Assembly: GCA_943359335.1 (NCBI GenBank)
Contig: CALRHC010000002.1
Span: 1,290 to 65,289, forward strand
Reading direction: 5' to 3'
From: Candidatus Yanofskybacteria bacterium
GTDB lineage: Bacteria; Patescibacteriota; Minisyncoccia; JACQLN01
Length of the DNA: 64,000 nucleotides
The position numbers and the translations under genes were made by a program. Below the pieces are notes generated by a model that saw only the letters and a program-made list of their open reading frames with translations, was not told where the DNA came from and searched no databases. Shown one piece after another: positions 24,940-55,762 of this stretch (its first letter is position 1; each line of letters opens with the position of its first letter).

Positions 24940-27900
24940 TTAAACCCTTTTGATTCCTACTCCAATCTCAAAACCTTCGTAATTCCAAACTTTGTGAACC
25001 AAGAAACTTTCGGTTTCGGTTATGCCAAAGTGAATTTGGGTAGAACGAGTTTCTTGTTTAATTACATCCTCCCAACGGGCTAATAATTCTTTAAAACCAG
25101 TGTTTTGGTTTAGTTCGTAATACAAAATTATTTTATCTTCGGGTGTTAACTTCGCTTCTTTTCTCATTTCGTTAATATTCCTAATCATCTCGCGCACCAT
25201 ACCTTCTTCTTTAAGTTCCGCCGTAAGCACAGTATCCAAACTAACACTATTTTTTTCTATTTTTCTATCGCTTAAAACTTTTTTAACATTAAGTTCTTCG
25301 GCCACAATGTATAAAACATCACCAATTAAATTGTAATCGGCTGGCGAAACATACAACGCATTAAGTGGCTGGCGTACGCGCAAACCTGCTTGAGCGCGTT
25401 CAGCAAGGCCCAATGCCACAATTTCGCGAGCTCTTTCCATAGCTTTCATAACATCGGAAGCTTTAACTGCTTTTGTATTTGGCCAAGGCTCTAAGTGAAC
25501 AGATTCTCTGTATCCAGCAACTTGAGTTAGATCTTTTAAGCTTTGGTGTAACCATTCCGATATAAACGGTGCGAATGGCGCCATTATAATTGCGGTGCGT
25601 TTTAAAACTTCGGTTAAAGTATTTTGAGCCGATAATTTTTCGGCATCTATATTTTGTTTTTGAAATTTGCGGCGGCTACGGCGAATATACCAATTAGAAA
25701 GTTCGTCTATAAATTCTTCTATGGCACGCGAAGCGGAAGTTATATCGTACGAATCTAAAAATTTATTTACATCAAATTCCAATTTTTCTAAACGCATTAA
25801 AACCCATTTATCTAGAATATCTGTTTTAGCCGCCAAAGATTTTGGAGGCACAACAAAATATGTTTCTAAAAACAAAAACGAATTAATTAGAGTATCGGCA
25901 AACCTGCGCTTTTTACTTTCTATATCGCGCATACTAAAAAGTTTATTATCGCCCGGCGCGTTTACAGTGTAAAAGTACCAACGCATCATGTCGAAACCAA
26001 CTTTCTCGCCTACCATCCATGGGTCTACAATATTCCCCTTCGATTTAGACATCTTTTCGCCTTTTTCATCTAATACATGGTTTAAACTAATTACATTTTT
26101 GTATGGCGCGCCTTCGCCCAAGGCTGTGCTAACCGCCATTAAGGTGTAGAACCAACCACGGGTTTGGTCGATAGCTTCGCAAATGTAATCTGCTGGAAAT
26201 TTGTCCTTACCCAAGTTTTGAGATTTAAGTTTTGAGATTTGAGATCCATGTTGGGCCCACGGCATCGCGCCCGAATCAAACCAAACATCGGCTAAGTCTT
26301 TTATACGTTCCATCTTTGAGGAACACATAGAACACTTGAGGAACACATTGTCTGCGTACGGGCGATGCAGGTTTAAATTCCCTTCTTCGTCGCGTGGCCA
26401 GTTATTTGTTTCTACAAAAGCAAATTCGGCAGGATCCAATGCTAACTTAGTGTTCTTAATTACGTTTCTATATAAAAGCGCTTCGTCTTCACCATAAATT
26501 CCGTTAGATAACAAAAGCAAAAATAGGGGATCCATATGGCTTACCACTGCAATTTTTTTACCCGCATGTTTTTTGGAAACTTCCACCATAAATTCACGAA
26601 CTCTTTTAGATACATCTAGCCACGATTCGCCTTCTGGTGGGCGGCGCATAAACCTTTCTTTATAGGAATTAAAATAGTTTTTATATTCAATCGCCGGCCC
26701 GCCGTTAAATTCGCCAGTATTAAGTTCGCGTAAACGTTCGTCGAAAATAACTTCTTTTATTTTTAATTCGTCGGCTAAAATTTGCGCAGTTTCGCGAGTG
26801 CGTAATAAATCGGAAGCATAAATTGCTACCACCTTTTCTTTATCTAATTGTTTTTTAATTTTCTTAGCGGATTCTTCTGCCTGCTTCCTACCTTTTTCGG
26901 TTAAAGGGTTTAAAAACTTTTCTGGGTAACAACTACACAAATTTTTTACATTAGATTCTGCCTCGCCGTGACGCATTAAAACCAAAGTAGCTGGGGTATC
27001 TGGGCGGTGTTGGTTAAGTTCTTCTAAAGAACCGATTACGGTTTTGTGTTCGCATTTGGTGCATTCCCAAATTGGCAGTGGCGTACCCCAATACCTTTCA
27101 CGGCTTATGGCCCAGTCCTTAACTTCGCGTAACCATTCGCCAAACCTACCTTCTTTAATGTGTTCGGGTACCCAATTAACTTTTTCGTTATTTTTAATTA
27201 AATCGCCACGTAACGCCGACATTTTTATAAACCAACTTTCTTGTGCGTAATATAGTAACGGCGATTTACAACGCCAACAGAATGGATATTCGTGTTTGTA
27301 GCTAGCTTCGCTAAATAACAAATTTTTTGTTTTTAAATAAAACAAAATTGTTTTTTCGGTTATAGGGTCTTTTTTGTTTTCGCTAACAATAGCAAGACCG
27401 CCTACCACTGGAACAGATTTTATAAAAACTCCTTCGCGATTAACCGTGTGGAATTTTGGCAAATTTAATTTGGTACCAAGTTCAAAATCGTCGGCGCCAT
27501 ACATTACTGCGGTATGCACAATCCCCGTGCCGTCTTCTGTGGTTACAAAATCGGCTTCGTAAACTTTGTAAGAATTTTCACTTTCTAATTCTTTAACTGC
27601 AAATAAAGCCTCGTAAGAAAGTTTGGTAAGATCACCCGCTTTTAATTCTTTATTTATTTTATATTCGTGTCCTGCTAAAACTTTCTCGGCCAAGTCTTTG
27701 GCTAAAATATATTTCTCACCGTTAACTTCGGCCTCTACATAAACAACTTTTGGCCCTACTGCCAAAGCAACATTACCTGGTAAAGTCCATGGCGTGGTAG
27801 TCCACGCTAATAAGTATGTATTTTCTAGTTCTTTAACTTTAAATTTTATAGTTACCGATCTATCTGTAACTGTTTCGTAACCTTGCGCCACTTCGTGGCT

Positions 27901-28455
27901 AGAAATCGGCGTACCGCAACGCACACAAAACGGAACGATTTTATAATCTTTAACTAAAAGTTTTTTATCGTAAATTCTTTTTAAAATATTCCAAACATTT
28001 TCTATGTATTGAGGTTCGTAGGTTATGTATGGATTTTTTAAGTCTAACCAGTAACCCATGCGGCGTGTCATTTTTTCCCATTCGTCTTTATATTGCCAAA
28101 CAGATTCTTGGCAATCTTTGTTGAATTTAGCAATGCCGTATTTTTCTACATCGCGTTTGTTTTTTAACCCAAGTTTTTTCTCTACTTCTATTTCTACCGG
28201 TAAACCATGAGTATCCCAACCTGCGCGACGTTGAACAAACCGTCCTTTCATGGTTTGAAAACGGCAAATAATATCTTTAAACGAACGCGCCACGATATGA
28301 TGAATACCTGGCTTGCCGTTAGCCGTAGGCGGGCCTTCGTAAAATACAAAAGGCTTACCATCTTTAGTGGCTTCTAATGTTTTTTCAAAAATCTGGTTAT
28401 CGTGCCAATGTTTTAAAACTTTTTCTTCTTCTTGAGGTAGATTTACTTGTCTCAT
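24940..28455 (-). CDS. ileS: isoleucyl-tRNA synthetase (type 2) carrying an inserted histidine phosphatase (PGAM-like) domain (approx residues 488-690)
   Basis: PPTANGKPGIHH, WTTTPWTLP editing motif, KMSKS; insert has LMRHGEAESN, DLLRTRETA, AVVSHMD. Confidence 0.93.
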   Translation of the reverse strand: MRQVNLPQEEEKVLKHWHDNQIFEKTLEATKDGKPFVFYEGPPTANGKPGIHHIVARSFKDIICRFQTMKGRFVQRRAGWDTHGLPVEIEVEKKLGLKNKRDVEKYGIAKFNKDCQESVWQYKDEWEKMTRRMGYWLDLKNPYITYEPQYIENVWNILKRIYDKKLLVKDYKIVPFCVRCGTPISSHEVAQGYETVTDRSVTIKFKVKELENTYLLAWTTTPWTLPGNVALAVGPKVVYVEAEVNGEKYILAKDLAEKVLAGHEYKINKELKAGDLTKLSYEALFAVKELESENSYKVYEADFVTTEDGTGIVHTAVMYGADDFELGTKLNLPKFHTVNREGVFIKSVPVVGGLAIVSENKKDPITEKTILFYLKTKNLLFSEASYKHEYPFCWRCKSPLLYYAQESWFIKMSALRGDLIKNNEKVNWVPEHIKEGRFGEWLREVKDWAISRERYWGTPLPIWECTKCEHKTVIGSLEELNQHRPDTPATLVLMRHGEAESNVKNLCSCYPEKFLNPLTEKGRKQAEESAKKIKKQLDKEKVVAIYASDLLRTRETAQILADELKIKEVIFDERLRELNTGEFNGGPAIEYKNYFNSYKERFMRRPPEGESWLDVSKRVREFMVEVSKKHAGKKIAVVSHMDPLFLLLLSNGIYGEDEALLYRNVIKNTKLALDPAEFAFVETNNWPRDEEGNLNLHRPYADNVFLKCSMCSSKMERIKDLADVWFDSGAMPWAQHGSQISKLKSQNLGKDKFPADYICEAIDQTRGWFYTLMAVSTALGEGAPYKNVISLNHVLDEKGEKMSKSKGNIVDPWMVGEKVGFDMMRWYFYTVNAPGDNKLFSMRDIESKKRRFADTLINSFLFLETYFVVPPKSLAAKTDILDKWVLMRLEKLEFDVNKFLDSYDITSASRAIEEFIDELSNWYIRRSRRKFQKQNIDAEKLSAQNTLTEVLKRTAIIMAPFAPFISEWLHQSLKDLTQVAGYRESVHLEPWPNTKAVKASDVMKAMERAREIVALGLAERAQAGLRVRQPLNALYVSPADYNLIGDVLYIVAEELNVKKVLSDRKIEKNSVSLDTVLTAELKEEGMVREMIRNINEMRKEAKLTPEDKIILYYELNQNTGFKELLARWEDVIKQETRSTQIHFGITETESFLVHKVWNYEGFEIGVGIKRV

Positions 28456-29605: not shown

Positions 29606-29964
29606 GGGGATGACTTGAATCGTCAAGGAACGTATCGATAAGAATTCGAAGCTGAGGTATACCACAAACTCATAAAACTGGTTACAAATAGTAAGTGCAA
29701 ACTTATTTAACGCTAAACCAGCGTTTGCCGTAGCTTAAAATCTATCGGCCATCGCCCTGTTTTTGCCCAAGAAGACAGTGTGCGGTGTTAACCTTTTGGG
29801 CTGCTGTCTAATGAAGGCGAACTTTAGACTTAAGACAATCGCCGAAAGTTTAACTTTTTTCACCATTCTTTAAGGGTTAAACTTAAACCAAGAATGGTTA
29901 GGCTTCGTAGCAGTTCAATCGAGAAATTTTTTGCACGCGGGTTCAATTCCCGCCATCTCCACCA
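29606..29964 (+). ncRNA. ssrA: tmRNA (transfer-messenger RNA)
   Basis: 5' GGGGATG pairs with CATCTCC-A-CCA 3'; T-arm GGTTCAATTCC; tag ORF GCA AAC TTA TTT AAC GCT AAA CCA GCG TTT GCC GTA GCT TAA (ANLFNAKPAFAVA) at 29697-29738. Confidence 0.9.
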
Positions 29965-36320: not shown

Positions 36321-36878
36321 TTAGCTTTCGCACTTCTTAAGGGCTCTTGGTATCTTCTTAAAAGCTACCTTTAACGCCTCCATATTCCTAGTCGATCTTA
36401 AGGCTGCCGCAGGGTGAAAAACAGGAACAATGAACCTATTACCAAACTTAGAAGTCTTGCCTTGGTCTCGACTAATTTTAGCTGTGGGTAAAAAATAATT
36501 CATAGAAAACCTACCCAATGTAACTATAAGTACGGGGTTAATTATTTCTATTTGTTTAGCTAAATATGGTCGGTACGAATCTATTTCATTAGGCAATGGA
36601 TCGCGGTTTTCTGGTGGGCGCCTTTTAACAATATTTGTTATATAAACATCTTCCCTCTTCCAGCCAATACCGTTTATTAAATTATTTAAAAGTTCACCCG
36701 ATCTACCTACAAAAGGTCGCTTGAGTTCGTCTTCTTTAGCGCCCGGCGCTTCACCAATAAACATGACTTTGCAATTTATATCACCTTCACCAAAAACCAA
36801 GTTTGATTTACGCAAAGGTAAGGCTTTGTTATTTTCTAGTTCTTTTTTAAGCTCTTCTAATTTGGCCAGTTTCGACAT
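36321..36878 (-). CDS. uracil-DNA glycosylase family 4
   Basis: GEAPGAKEDELKRPFVGRSG motif; start MSKLAKLE. Confidence 0.85.
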   Translation of the reverse strand: MSKLAKLEELKKELENNKALPLRKSNLVFGEGDINCKVMFIGEAPGAKEDELKRPFVGRSGELLNNLINGIGWKREDVYITNIVKRRPPENRDPLPNEIDSYRPYLAKQIEIINPVLIVTLGRFSMNYFLPTAKISRDQGKTSKFGNRFIVPVFHPAAALRSTRNMEALKVAFKKIPRALKKCES

Positions 36879-36879
36879 C

Positions 36880-38025
36880 TTAAATAGTATAAATAACTTC
36901 GTATACAATTCCCAGTAAAAACATTATCGCCAAAAGAAAAACTAAGCCTGTTTTTAAAGATAAAGAATATTCTGGAATTTGCGTGCCTTTTTTTCTGGCC
37001 TTTAGCCAAAGAAAAATAATAAGTAACGCCTCTAACCCACCCATAACACCGCCTGCCAAAGAGATCAGCTTAATAAAATCGGAAAAACCAGAGAAAAATA
37101 AATACATAGGAACACCCACCGTTAAAACAAAGCTCACTAAAACAGAAAGTTTAAAATCTAATTGAAATGAATTTTTTAAATTTAAACCTATAATAAAAAA
37201 AGAAGTTATTACGGCCAGAAAACCAACAACGGCTCCGTATTTTATAAAACCACTACCCAAAAAATCACTCAATCCAGCTATTGCCTCTCTTGAGGTAGAA
37301 ACACCACTAATACTCACAACGGCCAAAGTAAAAACAATATAAACAAAAACTGGAATAATTGTTCCCAAAATTATGGCTTTGTAATAATTTTTTGTACTTG
37401 TTTTAAAAAAAGAACGTATTTCTGGTATGGCCGACCCACCGGCTAAAGCAAAAAGGATTATGCCGTATGGAAAAAAGATTGAATCCACCGAAGAAAATTT
37501 AATTAAATTATCTGTATCGGCTAAATCAAAAGCATAAAAAACAAAGCTAAAAATTAATAACACTATGGCTGCCACCATAAAAAAATCGACCCAGCCGGCT
37601 AATTTTATACCTTTAAAAACAACTGAAAAACCAATAATAGCTAAAATAATAGAACCCACTTGCGAAGAAAAATTTAAAAAACCAGAAAAAATAATTCTTA
37701 AAAATTCACCGCCAACAACAAGGTAAACCAAAAGAGCTAAGTATAAATTTACAAAGAAAATAAAACTGCCAATTATTTTACCCCATGATCCAAAATAAAC
37801 TTCGGCATAGCCCGCCAATCTGTGCTTAGTAGAAGTTCTAAGCACAATTTCCCCATACATTAAATGGAGTAATGTTACTAAAATACCTAAAACAACCAAA
37901 TAAAAAATAACTGGAATAATTCCAGAAATTGCAGCGGCGTAAGGCAAACTAAACATTCCCACTCCTATTATTGTCCCAACAAGAGTAGAAACAGCTAGGG
38001 TAAAATTACTTAAACTTTTTAGCAC
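36880..38025 (-). CDS. amino acid permease, HAAAP/aromatic amino acid transporter-like
   Basis: 11 TM, N-terminal LVGTIIGVGMFSLPYAAAISG. Confidence 0.6.
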   Translation of the reverse strand: MLKSLSNFTLAVSTLVGTIIGVGMFSLPYAAAISGIIPVIFYLVVLGILVTLLHLMYGEIVLRTSTKHRLAGYAEVYFGSWGKIIGSFIFFVNLYLALLVYLVVGGEFLRIIFSGFLNFSSQVGSIILAIIGFSVVFKGIKLAGWVDFFMVAAIVLLIFSFVFYAFDLADTDNLIKFSSVDSIFFPYGIILFALAGGSAIPEIRSFFKTSTKNYYKAIILGTIIPVFVYIVFTLAVVSISGVSTSREAIAGLSDFLGSGFIKYGAVVGFLAVITSFFIIGLNLKNSFQLDFKLSVLVSFVLTVGVPMYLFFSGFSDFIKLISLAGGVMGGLEALLIIFLWLKARKKGTQIPEYSLSLKTGLVFLLAIMFLLGIVYEVIYTI

Positions 38026-41380: not shown

Positions 41381-41632
41381 TTATCTACCGGTTTCGTAAA
41401 ATGAAACCATCCTCTGAACCGGGTCTATGTGACTCCTATCATCTATCTCTTGCACGATAGACTCCGCAAACTCCTTGGCTTCCTCAAGAGAAATGCCTAT
41501 GTATTCGGCTTCCTTTTCAATCTTACGCTTGAAGCCAGATGCAAGTCGGATTCCCTTTCGGCGTAATTGCTGTTTCAGAAACAAAAATGCGATCTGACCC
41601 TTGCGAACATCGTCCACAATGAACCTCCTCAT
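41381..41632 (-). CDS. hypothetical 83-aa protein (GC-rich island)
   Basis: downstream of consensus promoter. Confidence 0.5.
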   Translation of the reverse strand: MRRFIVDDVRKGQIAFLFLKQQLRRKGIRLASGFKRKIEKEAEYIGISLEEAKEFAESIVQEIDDRSHIDPVQRMVSFYETGR

Positions 41633-41665
41633 AAGTTAAAGATCAAGCATTAACTGTATGCCTTA

Positions 41666-41693
41666 ATTATACACTATTTACAGTTCTTGTCAA
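41666..41693 (-). promoter_or_regulatory. consensus sigma70-like promoter TTGACA-16nt-TATAAT driving 41632 gene
   Basis: exact hexamers on minus strand. Confidence 0.55.
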
Positions 41694-41715
41694 GAGACAA
41701 CCTAGCCAACCAAAA

Positions 41716-41735
41716 AACAGCCTTTTCAGGCTGTT
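41716..41735. terminator. bidirectional hairpin AACAGCC-TTTTCA-GGCTGTT
   Basis: A-run left, T-run right. Confidence 0.6.
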
Positions 41736-41738
41736 TTT

Positions 41739-42089
41739 CTATATTCTTTGACTATTTATAAGTCCCAAAAGCATTTTTGAAACCTCTGTATAATCTTTAT
41801 AAAAACTACTAAAAACTTCCTCATTTATATGACCATCGTCTTTTATTAGTTCAAGAAGTGATACGCATTCATAAACAGAACCACGAGCTATGGTATAAAA
41901 ATTTCTTTTATCTGCTTTAGAAAATTTACCACTACCTTCGGCAATATTTATTACCGAGCTAATTGAAGCCCTTCTTAATTGATCTCTAATATAAGAATCA
42001 ATCAACTTGTTGTTTCTCAATAAGTTAAGGATATTCTTATTCAATAATTTTGACTTGGAGTAAACGGAAAGTTTTTCAAAATCAAACAT
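41739..42089 (-). CDS. four-helix-bundle protein (23S rRNA intervening-sequence protein / Avd-like family)
   Basis: MFDFEKL...QLRRASISSVINIAEGSGKFSKADKRNFYTIARGSVYE matches TIGR02436-type pattern. Confidence 0.8.
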   Translation of the reverse strand: MFDFEKLSVYSKSKLLNKNILNLLRNNKLIDSYIRDQLRRASISSVINIAEGSGKFSKADKRNFYTIARGSVYECVSLLELIKDDGHINEEVFSSFYKDYTEVSKMLLGLINSQRI

Positions 42090-42218
42090 AACAAGAAGTA
42101 ATTAGTGTGAGTATTTAGTATTTAGGTAAATTTTTTCTATTTTTTATTATCTTTTATTGTCCTAATTACTAATTACAAATTACTAACTACTTTAAATTTT
42201 TGAACGAAGCGAAAAAAT

Positions 42219-42713
42219 TTATGTATGCCTATCCGCAACCACAAAAGCCCCGAAAGACATTGGCTTTGTTTTTACTTCGTAGCCATTTCCCCTAACCATA
42301 CCTACTACCTCTTTTATCATTTCGCGTGTAGCACCATTTTCGCCTACATCTACATGGATTTCGAAATTAAAATTATCTAACAAATTTTCTTTCTTTAAAG
42401 ATTCAAAAAGTTCTTTGTAAACAACTTCGGCCACACTTAAAGATTTTAAAGTTTCGGTATAAATTCTTTCTCGTAATGTTTTAAAATTTTTATGTTCTTG
42501 CCGAGCCCAAAAATACCGGCCACCTGCACCCACGCGACGAACAACAATAGCCGTCACAAAATCTGTGCGGTCTATATAAACTTGAGAATCTGTACCCACT
42601 ATAACTTGGTATTTATGCTTAGCGCTTTCGTGCAAATAATCGTAAACATCGCGAATAACATCGGCAACCGGCATAACACCCTTAGATGGGCTATTAAATT
42701 TGCTGTCTATCAT
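42219..42713 (-). CDS. DUF458/YkuK-like protein (predicted RNase H-like fold)
   Basis: 164 aa, VIVGTDSQ...FVTAIVV pattern. Confidence 0.5.
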   Translation of the reverse strand: MIDSKFNSPSKGVMPVADVIRDVYDYLHESAKHKYQVIVGTDSQVYIDRTDFVTAIVVRRVGAGGRYFWARQEHKNFKTLRERIYTETLKSLSVAEVVYKELFESLKKENLLDNFNFEIHVDVGENGATREMIKEVVGMVRGNGYEVKTKPMSFGAFVVADRHT

Positions 42714-42740
42714 ATTTAGGAATATAGCAAAACAAACTAA

Positions 42741-43547
42741 CTAAAACAAACTTGGGATTTTATGTTCTTCATCTATAACTCTAGCATCTAAAATTCTATG
42801 AACCTTAAAATATCTTTTGTCTTTGCGAGTGTGGCAATAAGCTTCTACAGTATCTTTGTTTATAGAATAAATTTCTATGTTTCTTTTCTTGCGAGCTTCT
42901 TCGCCATCTTCCGATTTCATAGAAACATAATCTATTTCTACTAATTTTTTATTCTTATATGCATCGGCCAAAATTGCCTGTATATCTTTTTTTTCTTTAT
43001 CGTTAAACCAACTAGCAACCACTGTTTGCAAACCGCTTACGCGCGATTCAAACAAAACCGAACCATGATTTAAACCATATTCGTAAACTTCTTTGGTTAA
43101 CTTAACATCTTGCAAACAATATTTTTTAATCTGGTCGATCTTGCCTTCCTTATACCATTGCAAAGCTTCTAAGCCATGCCCAGATTTTTGCTCGCCTAGT
43201 GTTGCACTGGCCAAAGCACCAAGCCCTGGCCGGTAACCTAAAACCGCTTCTAACTTCTCCATTAAATCTAGTGTAGGCGCTTCGGCTATAGTAAAGTTTT
43301 TAAAATAAGGTTGTATAACTTGATTATCGAAATGCTTGGTATTAAAACCAATTATCAAACTGGCATCCGCCATTACTTTTTCTAGTTCGGGTAAATCTTT
43401 TTCTTCGTAGGCTTTATAGGTGTTGTCGGCATAAGTGTATACACCAACAACAGAAATACCCAACATATGAACATTTCTAAAACCACCGACTTCGGCGAGT
43501 TCCTTTTGAGTTTCTACATCAAAAACAAGTCTTTTATCTTGTTGCAT
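42741..43547 (-). CDS. DEDD-type 3'-5' exonuclease (DnaQ-like) fused to C-terminal WYL-like domain
   Basis: FDVETQ, GFNTKHFD, YCLQDV exo motifs; C-terminal KRYFKVHRILDARVID. Confidence 0.6.
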   Translation of the reverse strand: MQQDKRLVFDVETQKELAEVGGFRNVHMLGISVVGVYTYADNTYKAYEEKDLPELEKVMADASLIIGFNTKHFDNQVIQPYFKNFTIAEAPTLDLMEKLEAVLGYRPGLGALASATLGEQKSGHGLEALQWYKEGKIDQIKKYCLQDVKLTKEVYEYGLNHGSVLFESRVSGLQTVVASWFNDKEKKDIQAILADAYKNKKLVEIDYVSMKSEDGEEARKKRNIEIYSINKDTVEAYCHTRKDKRYFKVHRILDARVIDEEHKIPSLF

Positions 43548-43572
43548 TAGACGATATTACCATAAAATCAAA

Positions 43573-43590
43573 CCCCGCCAAAAGACGGGG
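43573..43590 (-). terminator. hairpin CCCCG-CCAAAAGA-CGGGG after 43618..44163 gene
   Basis: minus-strand TTTGATTTTATGG. Confidence 0.55.
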
Positions 43591-43617
43591 TTTGTAATTA
43601 CGTAATTACTTAGTTGC

Positions 43618-44163
43618 CTAATTACTTCTAATTTTCTTATATCCCAACCAAATAAGAATTGCGAGCGCAACACCCAAAACAATAAAACGTAAGTAATCGT
43701 TCATATCGGACCAATAACGAATAGTGCCAACAATAAGCGACAGAAGTCCTCCACCCAAAAAGCCATTGGCTACTGGCGCAGCGCTGATAACTAAAAAACC
43801 AAGGCCAAGCGAAATAAGGCCTAAAATAACAAGGGCTATAAATACATTGCGGTTATAAACATCGCGTGCGGATTCATAACTTTCGCGGCACTTAGCCGTA
43901 GAATCGCACCAACTCGTCTCGCCTGTTTGAGGTTGAGGCTTCATGGGTACTATCTGCCCATCGTAATTAACTTGATTACTTTCGTACCACTTTCCACCCA
44001 CCGCTTCGCACGAAGCTTTTTCGGTATAAACTTTTTGAGTTAACTCGACCGAACAAAAGTTTTCAAACTTAGGTTCCGGATAAAAAGTAAAAACCCCGTA
44101 ATTAAAAAACAAATTGAGCACTATTACTATGGCCAAAGCCAAAATTATTTCTTTTATTTTCAT
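43618..44163 (-). CDS. hypothetical membrane protein with Cys-rich extracytoplasmic segment
   Basis: 181 aa. Confidence 0.5.
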   Translation of the reverse strand: MKIKEIILALAIVIVLNLFFNYGVFTFYPEPKFENFCSVELTQKVYTEKASCEAVGGKWYESNQVNYDGQIVPMKPQPQTGETSWCDSTAKCRESYESARDVYNRNVFIALVILGLISLGLGFLVISAAPVANGFLGGGLLSLIVGTIRYWSDMNDYLRFIVLGVALAILIWLGYKKIRSN

Positions 44164-44165
44164 AT

Positions 44166-44753
44166 TTATTTAAACAACCTAAAAGAGTTATAAATTTTAT
44201 TTAAAATATCATTATCATCTTCACTATAGAAAATAAGGATTTTACCATCGCCGAGCCAAACATACATTTCATAAACATTACCTATCATTCCTTCGAAATT
44301 TCTGCGATGCAAAATAACCATGGCCTCGCCTAGTTTTTTTACCACAAAGGTGGAATAAAATTTTTCACCAATTACATTGTTTCCACCAAGATTAAAATAT
44401 AAACTCCTTAAGTTATTTTCATATTCGGCTAAGGATTTAAATTTAACATCTTGATAATATGCCTTGATTCCAGAAGCTTCATAATATCCATCCTTTTTAA
44501 AAAAACCAACAATCGCCACACCATCAGGATTTTCTTCTGCGCTATAATATTCCGGATATTTTATCTCAAACCCATACTTTTCATTTCTATAAGTTTTCCA
44601 ATTCGCGGTTTCGTCTGCGACTTTTTGATTTGCATTTGAATTTTCCGCTGGAGCATAAGCTGGTTTTTTAGAGAGATAAAAATACCCGCCACCGAGTAGT
44701 AAAATTCCTAGTGCGATGATAACAACATCTTTTATAAATCCTTTTTGGTTCAT
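44166..44753 (-). CDS. secreted/anchored protein, paralog A (shares N-terminal approx 70 aa with 45310..45819)
   Basis: MNQKGFIKDVVIIALGILLLGGGYFY... approx 80% nt identity over first 200 nt with paralog B. Confidence 0.55.
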   Translation of the reverse strand: MNQKGFIKDVVIIALGILLLGGGYFYLSKKPAYAPAENSNANQKVADETANWKTYRNEKYGFEIKYPEYYSAEENPDGVAIVGFFKKDGYYEASGIKAYYQDVKFKSLAEYENNLRSLYFNLGGNNVIGEKFYSTFVVKKLGEAMVILHRRNFEGMIGNVYEMYVWLGDGKILIFYSEDDNDILNKIYNSFRLFK

Positions 44754-44754
44754 G

Positions 44755-44976
44755 TTATTTTAATAACTTCTCAAATTCAGACGGGGATAATTCGGCGTCT
44801 CGTAAAATTTTTCTTAACAGACCATGACCAATAATTTTATGATCTGGTATGGTTACTGATTTTCTACCTGGGCAAAACAATCGCATATGACTACCGCGCT
44901 GACGAACTTGCCTGTAACCAATTCTGCTAAGAGTTTTTGTTAATTCCTTACCTGAAAATAAAGGCAGGCGAGTCAT
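44755..44976 (-). CDS. hicA: HicA family toxin (mRNA interferase)
   Basis: YcfA/HicA signature ...RQRGSHMRL...VTIPDHK. Confidence 0.8.
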   Translation of the reverse strand: MTRLPLFSGKELTKTLSRIGYRQVRQRGSHMRLFCPGRKSVTIPDHKIIGHGLLRKILRDAELSPSEFEKLLK

Positions 44977-44981
44977 ATATA

Positions 44982-45233
44982 CTAGAAAGACATTGTATAT
45001 AAACTTAATTCTTTAGAACGATAGGCTTTAAGCAAATCTTTATTTCCTTTGTCTTCTATAATTAGCTCAATAACTTCGCGTATGTTTTTTAAAGCCTCGT
45101 TTTTTGTTTTACCTTGACTGTAACATCCTTCAAAAACAGGACATTCCACCACATAAAAACCGTCCTCGTCTTTTTCTACAAGCAAGGGCAGTTTAGAGCC
45201 TAATCGTTTGGTTTTAGTACTAACCTTTGACAT
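44982..45233 (-). CDS. hicB: HicB-like antitoxin (UPF0150)
   Basis: DGFYVVECPVFEGCYSQGKTKNEALKNIREVIELII. Confidence 0.75.
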   Translation of the reverse strand: MSKVSTKTKRLGSKLPLLVEKDEDGFYVVECPVFEGCYSQGKTKNEALKNIREVIELIIEDKGNKDLLKAYRSKELSLYTMSF

Positions 45234-45309
45234 ATTGATTTTACCTTAGCTTATTTTGAGACCTTTGCCAATTATTCTTTAATCACCGCTAAAGCCAAAA
45301 TTATTTATT

Positions 45310-45819
45310 TTATTTTGTGAATTTGAAGGTTGATAAAACCTTGTTACAAAAATCCAAAATATCTAATCCACCATAATCTACACAATTGGCATAAACTTTC
45401 CGATTATCTTTATAAAAATAAATTGGATTCTCGCCGTCTATATTATTATTTTTAGTAAATAAAACAGTTTTCACTGATACGATTTGATATCTACTATCCG
45501 CCACATTACTTATCGTTAATCTTGCTGGCTCGTAACCTCCCGCCAATAAATCATAACTCACATCTACCTGAAAATCGGCGGCATTTTGAAAAAAAGACTG
45601 ATCAATAACGTCTGAACTTTTTGGGTATCTGAATTCAATTTCATATTTTTCATTTCTATAAGTCTTCCAATCTTTAGTTTCATCGGCAATTTGATTTTGA
45701 TTCGTATTTTCCGCTGGAGCATAGGCTGGGTTTTTGGAAAAATAAAAATACCCACCGCCTAGCAGTAGAATCGCTAGTACAATAATGACAATGTCTTTAA
45801 TAAAACCTTTTTGGTTCAT
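45310..45819 (-). CDS. secreted/anchored protein, paralog B
   Basis: MNQKGFIKDIVIIVLAILLLGGGYFY... Confidence 0.55.
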   Translation of the reverse strand: MNQKGFIKDIVIIVLAILLLGGGYFYFSKNPAYAPAENTNQNQIADETKDWKTYRNEKYEIEFRYPKSSDVIDQSFFQNAADFQVDVSYDLLAGGYEPARLTISNVADSRYQIVSVKTVLFTKNNNIDGENPIYFYKDNRKVYANCVDYGGLDILDFCNKVLSTFKFTK

Positions 45820-53560: not shown

Positions 53561-55762
53561 TTATTTTAGATCACCCCAATTTTTACCAACCTCTACTTCA
53601 GCTACTATTGGCACACCGATATCGGCAACGTTTTCCATAATATTTTTTACAATCTTTGAATATTTTTCTGCAACTTCTTCCTTAACTTCAAAAACCAATT
53701 CATCGTGAACTTGTAAAATCATTTTTATATCTTTTTTGGAACCTAATTCTTTTTCTATTTCTACCATCGCTGCTTTAACAATATCTCCTGTAGCCGTTCC
53801 TTGTATGGGCATATTTACAGCTTCTCTTTCGGCTGCCGCTCGCATCATTGGGTTAGGTGAATTTAAATCTACAAAACGTTTTCTACCCCATAAAGTTTCA
53901 ACATAACCCTGCGAACGAGCCTTGTTTTTTATATCGCGAATAAATTTAGCCAAACCCGAAAAACCAGCTTCGTAACCACGAATAAATTCTTGGGCCTCAC
54001 TTAATGTTACACCGGCTGATTGACTAAAAGCTCTTGGGCCCATGCCATAAAGCACGCCGAAGTTTAATGTTTTAGCTTCACGGCGCATGTCTTTTGTAAC
54101 TTTATCTAGCGGAACATTAAAAACTTCAGCTGCGGTTCTAGTATGAATATCTTCGCCTTTTTTAAAAGTGTCTATCATTTTTTCGTCGCCCGACATCGCC
54201 GCCGCTACACGAAGCTCTATTTGAGAATAGTCTGCCGCCAAAATCAGCCAACCATCTGGAGCAGTAAATGCTCGCCTAATTTCTAAACCATATTCACCTT
54301 TGGTTGGAATATTTTGTAAGTTTGGATTTTCCGAAGATAATCTACCTGTAACTGCGCCCAACTGTTTAAATGTTGTATGCAATCTACCGTCTGTACCAAC
54401 TAATCTTGGTAAGGCATCAACATATGTAGATTTTAATTTTGAAAGTTCGCGCCAACGCAAAATCAAAGGGAAAATTGGATGAGAATCTTTTAATTTATCT
54501 AGCTGATCAAATGCAGTAGAATATGCCCCGCTCTTTTTTGTTTTTTTAATTTTAGCTCCACCTAAATTTAGCTTTTCAAAAAGTATTCGGCCAAGTTCTT
54601 GAGTGGAATTTATATTAAATTCTTCTCCGGCAAATTCTATTATTTTATTTTTAATTTCAGCTAGTTCTTTTTCGAACTTTTCGCTTAAATTTTTTAACAG
54701 CTTAACGTCTAATAAAATACCTGTTTTTTCCATCTTTCTTAACACCGGCCGTACATCTTTTTCTAGTTTGTATATTTTTTCCGAAAAAATTCCTTTTTTA
54801 TAATATTCGTCTAGTTCGTCACCAATTAATTGAGCCTGCTCTGGAATTGATTCCTGTTCAGCCTCTATGCCCTTAAGATCATTAAGACGATTAATCAAAC
54901 TTTTAAAACCAAATCTAAAAAAAAGTTTTTTAATTTCTTCGTTTTCTACCAAATTAAAAGCGGTTTTTATAAAATCTAAATCAACCGGAACATCTCTTTT
55001 TATGGTTGCCAATCTTTTACTTAAAAATGCATCATCTTTGTTTACCGAAAGTTTTTCGAATAACTTAACACTTTTAACTTTAATCTTTTCTAAATTTTTA
55101 TATATATTTTCTAAACTGCCATATTCATTTAATAAATTAATAGCTGTTTTTTCGCCAATACCAAGCACGCCCGGGATATTGTCGGAAGCATCGCCTTTTA
55201 AGCCTTTAAGATCTGTTATTTGGCTTGGCCCCAAACCTTCGTATCTTTCACGAACAAGGACTTCGTTATATATAACGGTATCGTTTACGCCTTTTTTAAG
55301 CGTATAAACCAAAATATTTTCGTCGTCTATTAATTGTAAACAATCTAAATCACCCGTAACTATTATTTTTGTAAGTTCTTTTTTATTTTTTAATTTTTCT
55401 ACAACCGTGCCGATAATATCGTCAGCCTCAAAACTTTGAAGTTGTAAGACCGGAATTTTAAAAGCTTCTACAAGTTCCTTAACCAAAGAAAATTGATTAA
55501 TTAACGCATCATCTGTTGCAGGCCTATGGGCCTTATATTCTTTGTATTCTTTTTCCCGAAAAGTTGGGCCGGCCATATCAAACGCCGCCACAATATATTG
55601 TGGTTTTAATTCTTTAATAACGCGCATCAACACGCTGGCGAAACCATAAACAGCCTGCACTTGCCTACCATCTGGCGCAGTTAAAATTGGCAAAGCGTGA
55701 TAAGCGCGGTGGATTAAAGCATGACTGTCGATAATTACTAATTTTTCTTTTTCGTTTTTCAT
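53561..55762 (-). CDS. polA: DNA polymerase I (5'-3' exonuclease plus polymerase; short)
   Basis: 733 aa, 5' nuclease N-terminus, polymerase motifs A/B/C incl. QVHDELVFEV. Confidence 0.9.
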   Translation of the reverse strand: MKNEKEKLVIIDSHALIHRAYHALPILTAPDGRQVQAVYGFASVLMRVIKELKPQYIVAAFDMAGPTFREKEYKEYKAHRPATDDALINQFSLVKELVEAFKIPVLQLQSFEADDIIGTVVEKLKNKKELTKIIVTGDLDCLQLIDDENILVYTLKKGVNDTVIYNEVLVRERYEGLGPSQITDLKGLKGDASDNIPGVLGIGEKTAINLLNEYGSLENIYKNLEKIKVKSVKLFEKLSVNKDDAFLSKRLATIKRDVPVDLDFIKTAFNLVENEEIKKLFFRFGFKSLINRLNDLKGIEAEQESIPEQAQLIGDELDEYYKKGIFSEKIYKLEKDVRPVLRKMEKTGILLDVKLLKNLSEKFEKELAEIKNKIIEFAGEEFNINSTQELGRILFEKLNLGGAKIKKTKKSGAYSTAFDQLDKLKDSHPIFPLILRWRELSKLKSTYVDALPRLVGTDGRLHTTFKQLGAVTGRLSSENPNLQNIPTKGEYGLEIRRAFTAPDGWLILAADYSQIELRVAAAMSGDEKMIDTFKKGEDIHTRTAAEVFNVPLDKVTKDMRREAKTLNFGVLYGMGPRAFSQSAGVTLSEAQEFIRGYEAGFSGLAKFIRDIKNKARSQGYVETLWGRKRFVDLNSPNPMMRAAAEREAVNMPIQGTATGDIVKAAMVEIEKELGSKKDIKMILQVHDELVFEVKEEVAEKYSKIVKNIMENVADIGVPIVAEVEVGKNWGDLK

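Follow-up and report, generated by a model that had tools for sequence, protein, structure and literature searches.

The DnaQ-like fold and its two-metal 3'-5' exonuclease chemistry are found in the proofreading domains of E. coli Pol III epsilon (DnaQ) and Pol I and in those of the T7 and RB69 polymerases. E. coli epsilon also employs a clamp-binding motif (PMC3664792). A non-canonical mycobacterial DnaQ, proposed to be an auxiliary proofreader, combines an exonuclease with a BRCT domain and a C-terminal Q[Y/L]ALF motif, which is required for DnaN binding and dispensable for the antimutator function (PMC11348249). The WYL domains of CapW, DriD and PafBC bind single-stranded DNA (ssDNA) (PMC11662680). 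Majorek et al. (2014, PMC3985635) assigned the YkuK/DUF458 proteins, which are uncharacterised, to the RNase H1 clade. Here we analysed 64,000 nucleotides from Candidatus Yanofskybacteria bacterium (contig CALRHC010000002.1, positions 1,290 to 65,289; hereafter the window), in which a gene joining a 3'-5' exonuclease to a WYL barrel (exo-WYL) is followed by a DUF458/YkuK gene. In the literature that we searched we met no account of a family that joins an exonuclease to WYL, nor of an operon that joins one to DUF458. Together our data show that the two genes form a real, widely conserved and uncharacterised nuclease pair of candidate phyla radiation bacteria.

Domain structure of exo-WYL and its DUF458 partner

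An earlier note on this window, made from its letters alone, had read the 268-aa protein as a DnaQ-like 3'-5' exonuclease with a C-terminal WYL domain, and had placed a DUF458/YkuK gene 27 nt downstream; profile and structure searches bear out these readings. Pfam places RNase_H_2 (PF13482) on residues 31-157 with 32.3 bits, above the cut-off; matches to the exonuclease families of Pol A and of Pol B fall below threshold. Across an alignment of 75 exonuclease homologues D10, D74, Y143 and D147 do not vary and E12 is conserved in at least 90%, a pattern that makes exo-WYL a DEDDy enzyme. The AF2 model (pLDDT 91.9) begins with the exonuclease at residues 1-161, continues through a beta-hairpin and a helix into a five-strand barrel at 202-257 and closes with a low-confidence tail of the last ~10 residues. 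In Foldseek searches of the PDB the proofreading domains of the T7 and RB69 DNA polymerases were matches of the exonuclease part (E about 4e-5), and the top PHROG was phrog_403, 'DNA polymerase exonuclease subunit' (6.7e-14). Motifs and RNase H-like fold both fit the DnaQ-like DEDD superfamily, and exo-WYL belongs to its DEDDy subgroup.

Membership in the DnaQ/Pol III epsilon family was considered and rejected. Pfam gave no match in exo-WYL to PF00929, the DEDDh family of DnaQ and epsilon; Exo III carries Tyr and not His, and the C-terminal part is a WYL barrel. Unlike epsilon and the polymerase domains, exo-WYL is a separate polypeptide with a WYL domain and has no alpha-binding C-terminal segment. 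In the mycobacterial DnaQ (PMC11348249), as in the exo-WYL family, an accessory domain accompanies a 3'-5' exonuclease and a motif sits at the extreme C-terminus. The mycobacterial protein is, however, a DEDDh protein (PF00929) with a BRCT domain and without a DUF458 partner, whereas exo-WYL is a DEDDy protein (PF13482) with a WYL domain.

The C-terminal barrel of exo-WYL is a WYL domain, an Sm-like beta-barrel that matches PF13280 on residues 191-257 with 27.3 bits, against a gathering cut-off of 21.8. Foldseek aligned it, at probability 1.0, with the WYL domains of CapW (7tb5), PafBC (6sj9 and 9fnd) and BrxR (7qfz/7t8k), and profile searches of the PDB found the same chains at about 1e-5. 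Neither Pfam nor the AF2 model contains a helix-turn-helix (HTH) domain, a WCX dimerisation domain is likewise missing, and the protein ends 11 residues past the barrel. Because HTH and WCX domains are both absent, exo-WYL is not a WYL regulator; a winged HTH-WYL-WCX transcription regulator was thus ruled out, the N-terminus being the exonuclease. CapW, BrxR, PafBC and DriD have the barrel fold in common with exo-WYL, and their ligand is ssDNA (PMC11662680). They are transcription factors with HTH and WCX domains, whereas the barrel of exo-WYL is joined to an enzyme and does not obviously conserve the arginines of the CapW segment RWHVR. As a side observation, profile searches of the PDB matched the WYL part best to a WYL domain at the C-terminus of a ~510-aa 'AAA ATPase' (8bnv/8bns), another WYL domain joined to an enzyme and not to an HTH. 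Exo-WYL shows a WYL domain that is accessory to an enzyme and not to a transcription factor.

Exactly 27 nt separate exo-WYL from the downstream gene, whose product is a full-length member of PF04308 (DUF458/YkuK; 163.6 bits, 3.7e-48, model positions 1-144 of 145). Among 65 DUF458 homologues D42, E87, H120, D122 and D161 are invariant, and the predicted D-E-D-D catalytic set is intact in the window protein; no function is known for any member of the family. Fold neighbours of the AF2 model (pLDDT 86.8) are weak, namely RNase HI, EndoV and NurA, none of them at E <= 1e-3 in Foldseek, and they agree with the published RNase H1-clade placement (PMC3985635). A PDB sequence search with the DUF458 protein returned no matches, and NCBIfam has no model for it or for exo-WYL. 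Since their catalytic residues are invariant or nearly so, both proteins are predicted to be active nucleases.

An intrinsic terminator sets the upstream membrane-protein gene apart from the exo-WYL operon. Rfam matches at its hairpin were sub-threshold only (the rnk leader, which reached 37 bits where its gathering score is 55, and others) and are taken as chance. A promoter scan found no sigma-70 promoter upstream of the exonuclease gene. By eye, an extended -10-like TGnTAnAnT lies 8-9 nt before the ATG of both genes (43556-43564 and 42722-42730, minus strand); the strings are TGGTAATAT, 9 nt before the exonuclease ATG, and TGCTATATT before DUF458. Inspection by eye also finds similar TGnTAnnnT strings ahead of the exonuclease ATG in L001, a 99%-identical relative, and in loci L003-L007. 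Strings so close to the ATGs may reflect leaderless or very short-leader transcripts.

Distribution and chromosomal setting of the pair

A word-indexed search returned 593 exonuclease homologues, all from Patescibacteria where the source is named. A profile search of 1.84 billion representatives gave 4915 matches at E <= 1e-3 and 496 at E <= 1e-30. The family comes in two forms, one of about 270 aa with the WYL domain and one of about 195 aa without it. Viral contigs contain no exo-WYL, only remote relatives of the exonuclease domain (<=35% identity) that lack WYL.

The two genes are conserved as neighbours. We examined 80 species-level genomic loci with the exonuclease, 78 of which leave room for a downstream DUF458 gene. 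In 39 of the 78 a DUF458 gene follows the exonuclease gene immediately and in the same orientation, namely in 30 of 44 loci with the long form and in 9 of 34 with the short form (three long-form loci in this count were set right by hand via tblastn coordinates). The two genes are often spaced by fewer than 30 nt or overlap. Among the 39 paired loci the immediate neighbours belong to at least 20 families upstream and at least 26 downstream; because these flanking families vary, the adjacency itself is conserved, beyond general synteny.

The setting of the pair is one of housekeeping and DNA repair. Recurrent neighbours across the 80 loci are a MurE-like protein, RuvA (11 loci), a SpoU rRNA methylase (13 loci), an alpha/beta hydrolase, a PHP protein, the ExoVII large subunit and a beta-CASP RNase. 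In 12 loci, and in the window too, the beta-CASP gene is found 1-4 kb beyond the pair on its downstream side. A Ryanbacteria locus has holA, uvrB and ruvA as neighbours of the exonuclease, and uvrA-xseA-xseB stand immediately upstream of one short-form exonuclease with 1-nt gaps. The window itself encodes UvrB, RuvA, a MurE-like protein, RNase HII, beta-CASP, PolX-PHP and Pol I. The order MurE...exo-DUF458...RNase HII-betaCASP is conserved as a syntenic chromosomal block.

Outside the stand-alone family, the nearest relatives of the exonuclease are C-terminal domains of helicases of 920-1176 aa that carry DEAD, Helicase_C, WHD_HRQ1 and MrfA Zn-binding (MZB) domains, with identities of 42% (P0424, residues 7-180) and 36% (P0445, residues 7-182). 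Helicases of this composition form the DNA-repair branch of the YprA family (bioRxiv 10.1101/2025.09.15.676423). The YprA/MrfA fusions share with exo-WYL the PF13482-type fold, the Exo I-III motifs and a P-V-x-W segment. Unlike them, exo-WYL stands alone and carries a WYL barrel and a family tail of the form Q-x-S-L-F; the fused exonucleases (P0424, P0445, P0457, P0462 and others) stop at the conserved P-V-x-W and have no such tail. One cluster of the fused forms is annotated Candidatus Aerophobetes. B. subtilis MrfB (YprB) combines a DEDDh exonuclease with a C-terminal TPR domain, whereas exo-WYL combines DEDDy with WYL. Identity with MrfB in the narrow sense was rejected: exo-WYL is DEDDy, has no TPR domain and gives no PDB profile match to MrfB, and no YprA helicase is adjacent in the 80 loci or present in the window.

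The C-terminal tail and possible functions of the pair

Clamp-binding peptides are exposed and flexible and read Q-L-[SD]-L-F or Q-x-x-[LM]-F. The last block of exo-WYL has a pLDDT of 57, and the C-termini of 120 homologues end in the consensus Q-x-[SAT]-L-F-COOH in almost every member (QKSLF, QSSLF, QGALF, QSALF and QTALF are examples), including the ~195-aa short forms without WYL. A strict Q..L[FL] at the C-end occurs in 43 of 77 exonuclease open reading frames (ORFs) vs 1 of 772 other ORFs of the same loci. At the family level the tail, in its low-pLDDT region, matches the published bacterial clamp-binding consensus at positions 1, 4 and 5, while the window copy is without the Gln. The family tail resembles a beta-clamp-binding motif and would most likely dock the exonuclease onto the beta sliding clamp. 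For the mycobacterial DnaQ clamp binding has been demonstrated (PMC11348249), whereas for the exo-WYL family sequence suggests it. The absence of the tail from the helicase fusions fits a picture in which the helicase would recruit the fused form and the clamp the free form. The sole exception among the 772 ORFs is the uracil-DNA glycosylase of L005 (11686-12318, plus strand), which ends in LQESLF and lends weak support to a clamp-type motif; its window orthologue (36321-36908, minus strand) ends in ...KKCES, and that of L002, a 97%-identical relative, in ...CESLV.

We lean towards reading the exonuclease-DUF458 unit as a chromosomal, vertically inherited nuclease operon that serves DNA repair or replication in Patescibacteria, with an exonuclease of the polymerase-proofreading or YprA-helicase-associated type tethered to the clamp. 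A clamp that stays behind at a gap, a nick or a primer-template junction would place the exonuclease at the 3' end through its C-terminal tail. The WYL barrel would bind the neighbouring ssDNA and so hold or activate the exonuclease, which would trim mispaired, damaged or ribonucleotide-terminated 3' ends. The RNase H1-like DUF458 nuclease would cut the RNA or hybrid strand of the same intermediates. We infer that the tail binds the clamp, that the WYL barrel binds ssDNA, that the substrate is DNA and not RNA, and that the two enzymes cooperate. The proposal offers a testable function for the stand-alone PF13482 exonucleases of Patescibacteria and for DUF458/YkuK, and hints at how minimal-genome bacteria may arrange 3'-end editing around the sliding clamp.

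Several observations weigh against this proposal. The putative clamp motif is recognised from sequence alone, and the window tail, KIPSLF, is without the canonical Gln, the hexapeptide of its clade being QRPSLF. The Arg residues with which CapW contacts ssDNA, beside the WYL motif (RWHVR), are not obviously kept, the window protein having E-A-Y-C-H. MrfB of B. subtilis went undetected in the PDB profile search with exo-WYL, and it is DEDDh. An adjacent DUF458 is absent at half of the loci (39 of 78 have it), and the SpoU methylase and tRNA synthetases are frequent neighbours too. Finally, in other Patescibacteria lineages (L081-L086) DUF458 follows RtcB/archease and is itself followed by a beta-CASP RNase, no exonuclease gene lies in the vicinity, and the genes are ordered as HisRS - HIT - permease - (archease) - RtcB - DUF458 - beta-CASP RNase - ... 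- YbeY; this setting points to RNA metabolism. In one variant of the array a MjaI-type restriction enzyme and an N6/N4 methylase are inserted directly after DUF458.

The pair could instead process or repair RNA. The exonuclease would then act like RNase D or NrnC on RNA 3' ends (tRNA/rRNA maturation, nanoRNA removal), the WYL barrel would be an Sm-like RNA-binding module, DUF458 an endoribonuclease, and the tail would bind some other partner. RNase D has an analogous layout, an exonuclease followed by a nucleic-acid-binding domain. The place of DUF458 between RtcB/archease and beta-CASP RNase/YbeY speaks for this explanation, as do the beta-CASP gene downstream of the pair in 12 loci and the window and the SpoU methylase in 13 loci. 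Sub-threshold Pfam matches of exo-WYL to PF01612 (the family with RNase D) and a weak match to NrnC (9qth) in the PDB profile search also favour it. The closest relatives of the exonuclease (36-42% identity), however, are fused to DNA-repair helicases of the YprA/MrfA type, and its best structure and PHROG matches are proofreading domains of DNA polymerases. The neighbours xseAB, uvrA, uvrB, ruvA and holA belong to DNA repair, the tail fits the clamp-binding consensus, and the WYL domain of CapW bound ssDNA and not poly-U RNA (PMC11662680). We regard the RNA explanation as unlikely.

A different doubt concerns the tail itself. Q-x-S-L-F may be a docking peptide for DUF458 or for another partner, such as an SSB-like protein or the replicative polymerase, so that recruitment would be independent of the clamp. 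The missing Gln of the window protein agrees with this, and so do the dispensability of the mycobacterial clamp motif for antimutator function (PMC11348249) and the finding of both tail and DUF458 adjacency in long and short forms. Against it, the tail is retained in many short forms that have no DUF458 gene beside them, it fits the published clamp consensus at positions 1, 4 and 5, and the only other such ending in 772 ORFs belongs to uracil-DNA glycosylase, a DNA-repair enzyme. We find a clamp-independent tail distinctly improbable and retain the clamp-tethered repair or replication operon as the preferred reading.

A bolder form of the clamp-tethered reading makes the Patescibacteria exonuclease family a missing trans-acting proofreader or 3'-end editor, held by the clamp through its tail and gated by an ssDNA-sensing WYL barrel joined directly to the enzyme, with DUF458 as a dedicated RNase H-like partner that removes primers or ribonucleotides. 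Pol I of the window (53561-55762, minus strand, 733 aa) has 5'-3' exonuclease and polymerase domains and no match to a 3'-5' exonuclease domain, and its alignment with the NCBIfam Pol I model leaves out about 185 model positions. Likewise, PF01612 matches none of the 120 best Pol I homologues, all from Patescibacteria where named. A Pol I without the 3'-5' exonuclease domain is compatible with a proofreader acting in trans. Exonuclease-dead Pol I is, however, widespread in bacteria generally (PMC12926913), so that its occurrence here is a weak argument and counts among the points against. We hold the proofreader proposal to be rather doubtful; if true, it would provide the first functional assignment for DUF458/YkuK.

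Table 1. Features of the pair and of the adjoining DNA, in coordinates of the window.
Feature	Position	Strand	Evidence
exo-WYL gene, 268 aa: DEDDy 3'-5' exonuclease, WYL barrel and C-terminal tail	42741..43547	(-)	ORF; Pfam PF13482 and PF13280; AF2
Exonuclease domain, aa 1-161; Exo I D10-x-E12, Exo II D74, Exo III Y143-x3-D147	43065..43547	(-)	invariant columns
Helix and WYL beta-barrel, aa 183-257	42777..43001	(-)	PF13280; Foldseek; PDB profile matches
Disordered C-terminal tail, aa 258-268, ending KIPSLF	42744..42776	(-)	AF2; C-termini of homologues; motif count
DUF458/YkuK RNase H-like gene, 164 aa; invariant D42, E87, H120, D122, D161	42219..42713	(-)	PF04308; invariant columns; AF2
Intrinsic terminator of the upstream membrane-protein gene	43569..43594	(-)	11-bp stem with 7 GC pairs, then T-run; fold z-score -4.6
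Upstream GTAATTA(C/G) word array, over last codons and stop of the membrane-protein gene 43618-44163	43594..43626	(-)	sequence
Downstream TAATTAC cluster, the IVP-gene leader: inverted heptamer arrays after a small AT hairpin	42098..42218	(-)	conservation; 22-pair hairpin; fold z-score -3.4
23S_rRNA_IVP/TIGR02436 four-helix-bundle gene, variable insertion beside the pair	41739..42089	(-)	PF05635 7.4e-26; TIGR02436

TAATTAC arrays, defence genes and other features of the window

The earlier note had also drawn attention to TAATTAC strings at 42161-42190 and 43594-43635, which are present there, and had read GTAATTAC clusters around the pair as dedicated flanking dyads, either paired binding sites or remnants of cassette ends. 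Local clustering of TAATTAC is confirmed, with 5 copies in 100 nt vs a maximum of 4 in 300 Markov simulations, and 11 of the 31 matches fall in the intergenic 9% of the window. The window-wide excess (31 observed vs 21.3 +/- 5.0 expected) is marginal, since 4 of 100 shuffles reach 31.

The clusters do not follow the gene pair. The upstream array, which abuts the terminator of the membrane-protein gene, is specific to a lineage: it is kept in L001 only and is absent from L002 and all others examined; it resembles a lone arm of the same word family as the leader of the IVP gene, which lies beyond DUF458. The downstream cluster is the conserved leader of this IVP gene and is separate from the exonuclease-DUF458 pair. 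It is absent from L001, which has no IVP gene, and present wherever the IVP gene is (L002, the distant relative L041 and metagenome loci), also after tRNA genes. More distant relatives with the exonuclease-DUF458 pair have neither array. Because the arrays separate from the gene pair in relatives, the 'paired dyads' are a coincidence of two neighbouring elements. A mobile cassette with terminal inverted repeats was likewise ruled out, L001 having the upstream array only, L002 the downstream one only and others neither. No long direct or inverted repeats bracket the pair; only a 12-nt inverted match, AGAAGTAATTAG, was found. The arrays were thus a false lead as operators or cassette ends of the pair, and a separate conserved IVP-gene leader was uncovered.

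The leader consists of an AT hairpin followed by two inverted GTAWTTA heptamer arrays around a 35-45-nt loop. Its 5' arm reads ...TAGTAATTAGG and its 3' arm CCCTAAMTAC...CACACTAATTAC, and it ends 5-30 nt before the ATG. It is 76% identical in nucleotides to the leaders of L002 (7394-7490) and L041 (7185-7287); in L041 the exonuclease protein is 49% and the IVP protein 71% identical. A metagenome scan with TAGTAATTAGG-N40-70-CACACTAATTAC returned 10 loci (L153-L162), in which the element stands after tRNA-Ser or tRNA-Gly genes or after the DUF458 stop, ahead of IVP ORFs; the genomes concerned are unrelated. One of them, L158, carries an expanded array. The heptamer arrays can form an imperfect consensus hairpin of 22 pairs, almost all of them invariant with one double change, which is compatible with an RNA hairpin or a DNA site array. 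The leader element looks like a mobile or variable cassette.

The segment around the IVP gene varies among close relatives. The IVP gene and an 83-aa ORF (41381-41632), which occupy 41381-42218 in the window, are absent from L001 (7449-7557), where DUF458 directly precedes the orf107 homologue. The 83-aa ORF is preceded on the minus strand by a perfect sigma-70 promoter, TTGACA-16-TATAAT (41693-41666), and a bidirectional-looking terminator occupies 41713-41738.

The earlier note had further suggested a defence or RNA-processing module. As a defence module the pair would be an anti-phage sensor-nuclease system with a ligand-sensing WYL domain, and the GTAATTAC dyads would serve it as operators or mark the ends of a cassette. 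Regulators of defence systems often contain WYL domains, PADLOC WYL models match residues 171-265 of exo-WYL, a HicAB toxin-antitoxin pair lies 1.2 kb away and the TAATTAC motif is locally clustered. These PADLOC matches are, however, confined to the generic WYL domain, exo-WYL has no HTH, and the DUF458 protein gives only a weak partial match to Old (3e-4). The pair sits in conserved housekeeping synteny with DNA-repair genes, no defence genes were found among the neighbours of the 80 loci, and there are no viral copies. The dyads are part of other elements, and forms without WYL retain the same partner and tail. Membership in a known anti-phage system was rejected, with no system-specific PADLOC model and no defence partners nearby, and a defence role in general appears highly improbable.

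Other features of the window were noted in passing. The HicA toxin (44755-44976) and HicB antitoxin (44982-45233) lie in a minus-strand region (44166-45819) between two paralogous genes, 44166-44753 and 45310-45819, which have a common N-terminus, MNQKGFIKD..ILLLGGGYFY, and a weak PsbP_2 match. Rfam places a tmRNA at 29606-29964 (plus strand, 106.8 bits), where ARAGORN reported none in the same window. The isoleucyl/class-I tRNA synthetase (24940-28455, minus strand, 1171 aa) carries a His_Phos_1 domain (PF00300, 1.4e-32) inserted at residues 491-649, between the two halves of its catalytic domain.

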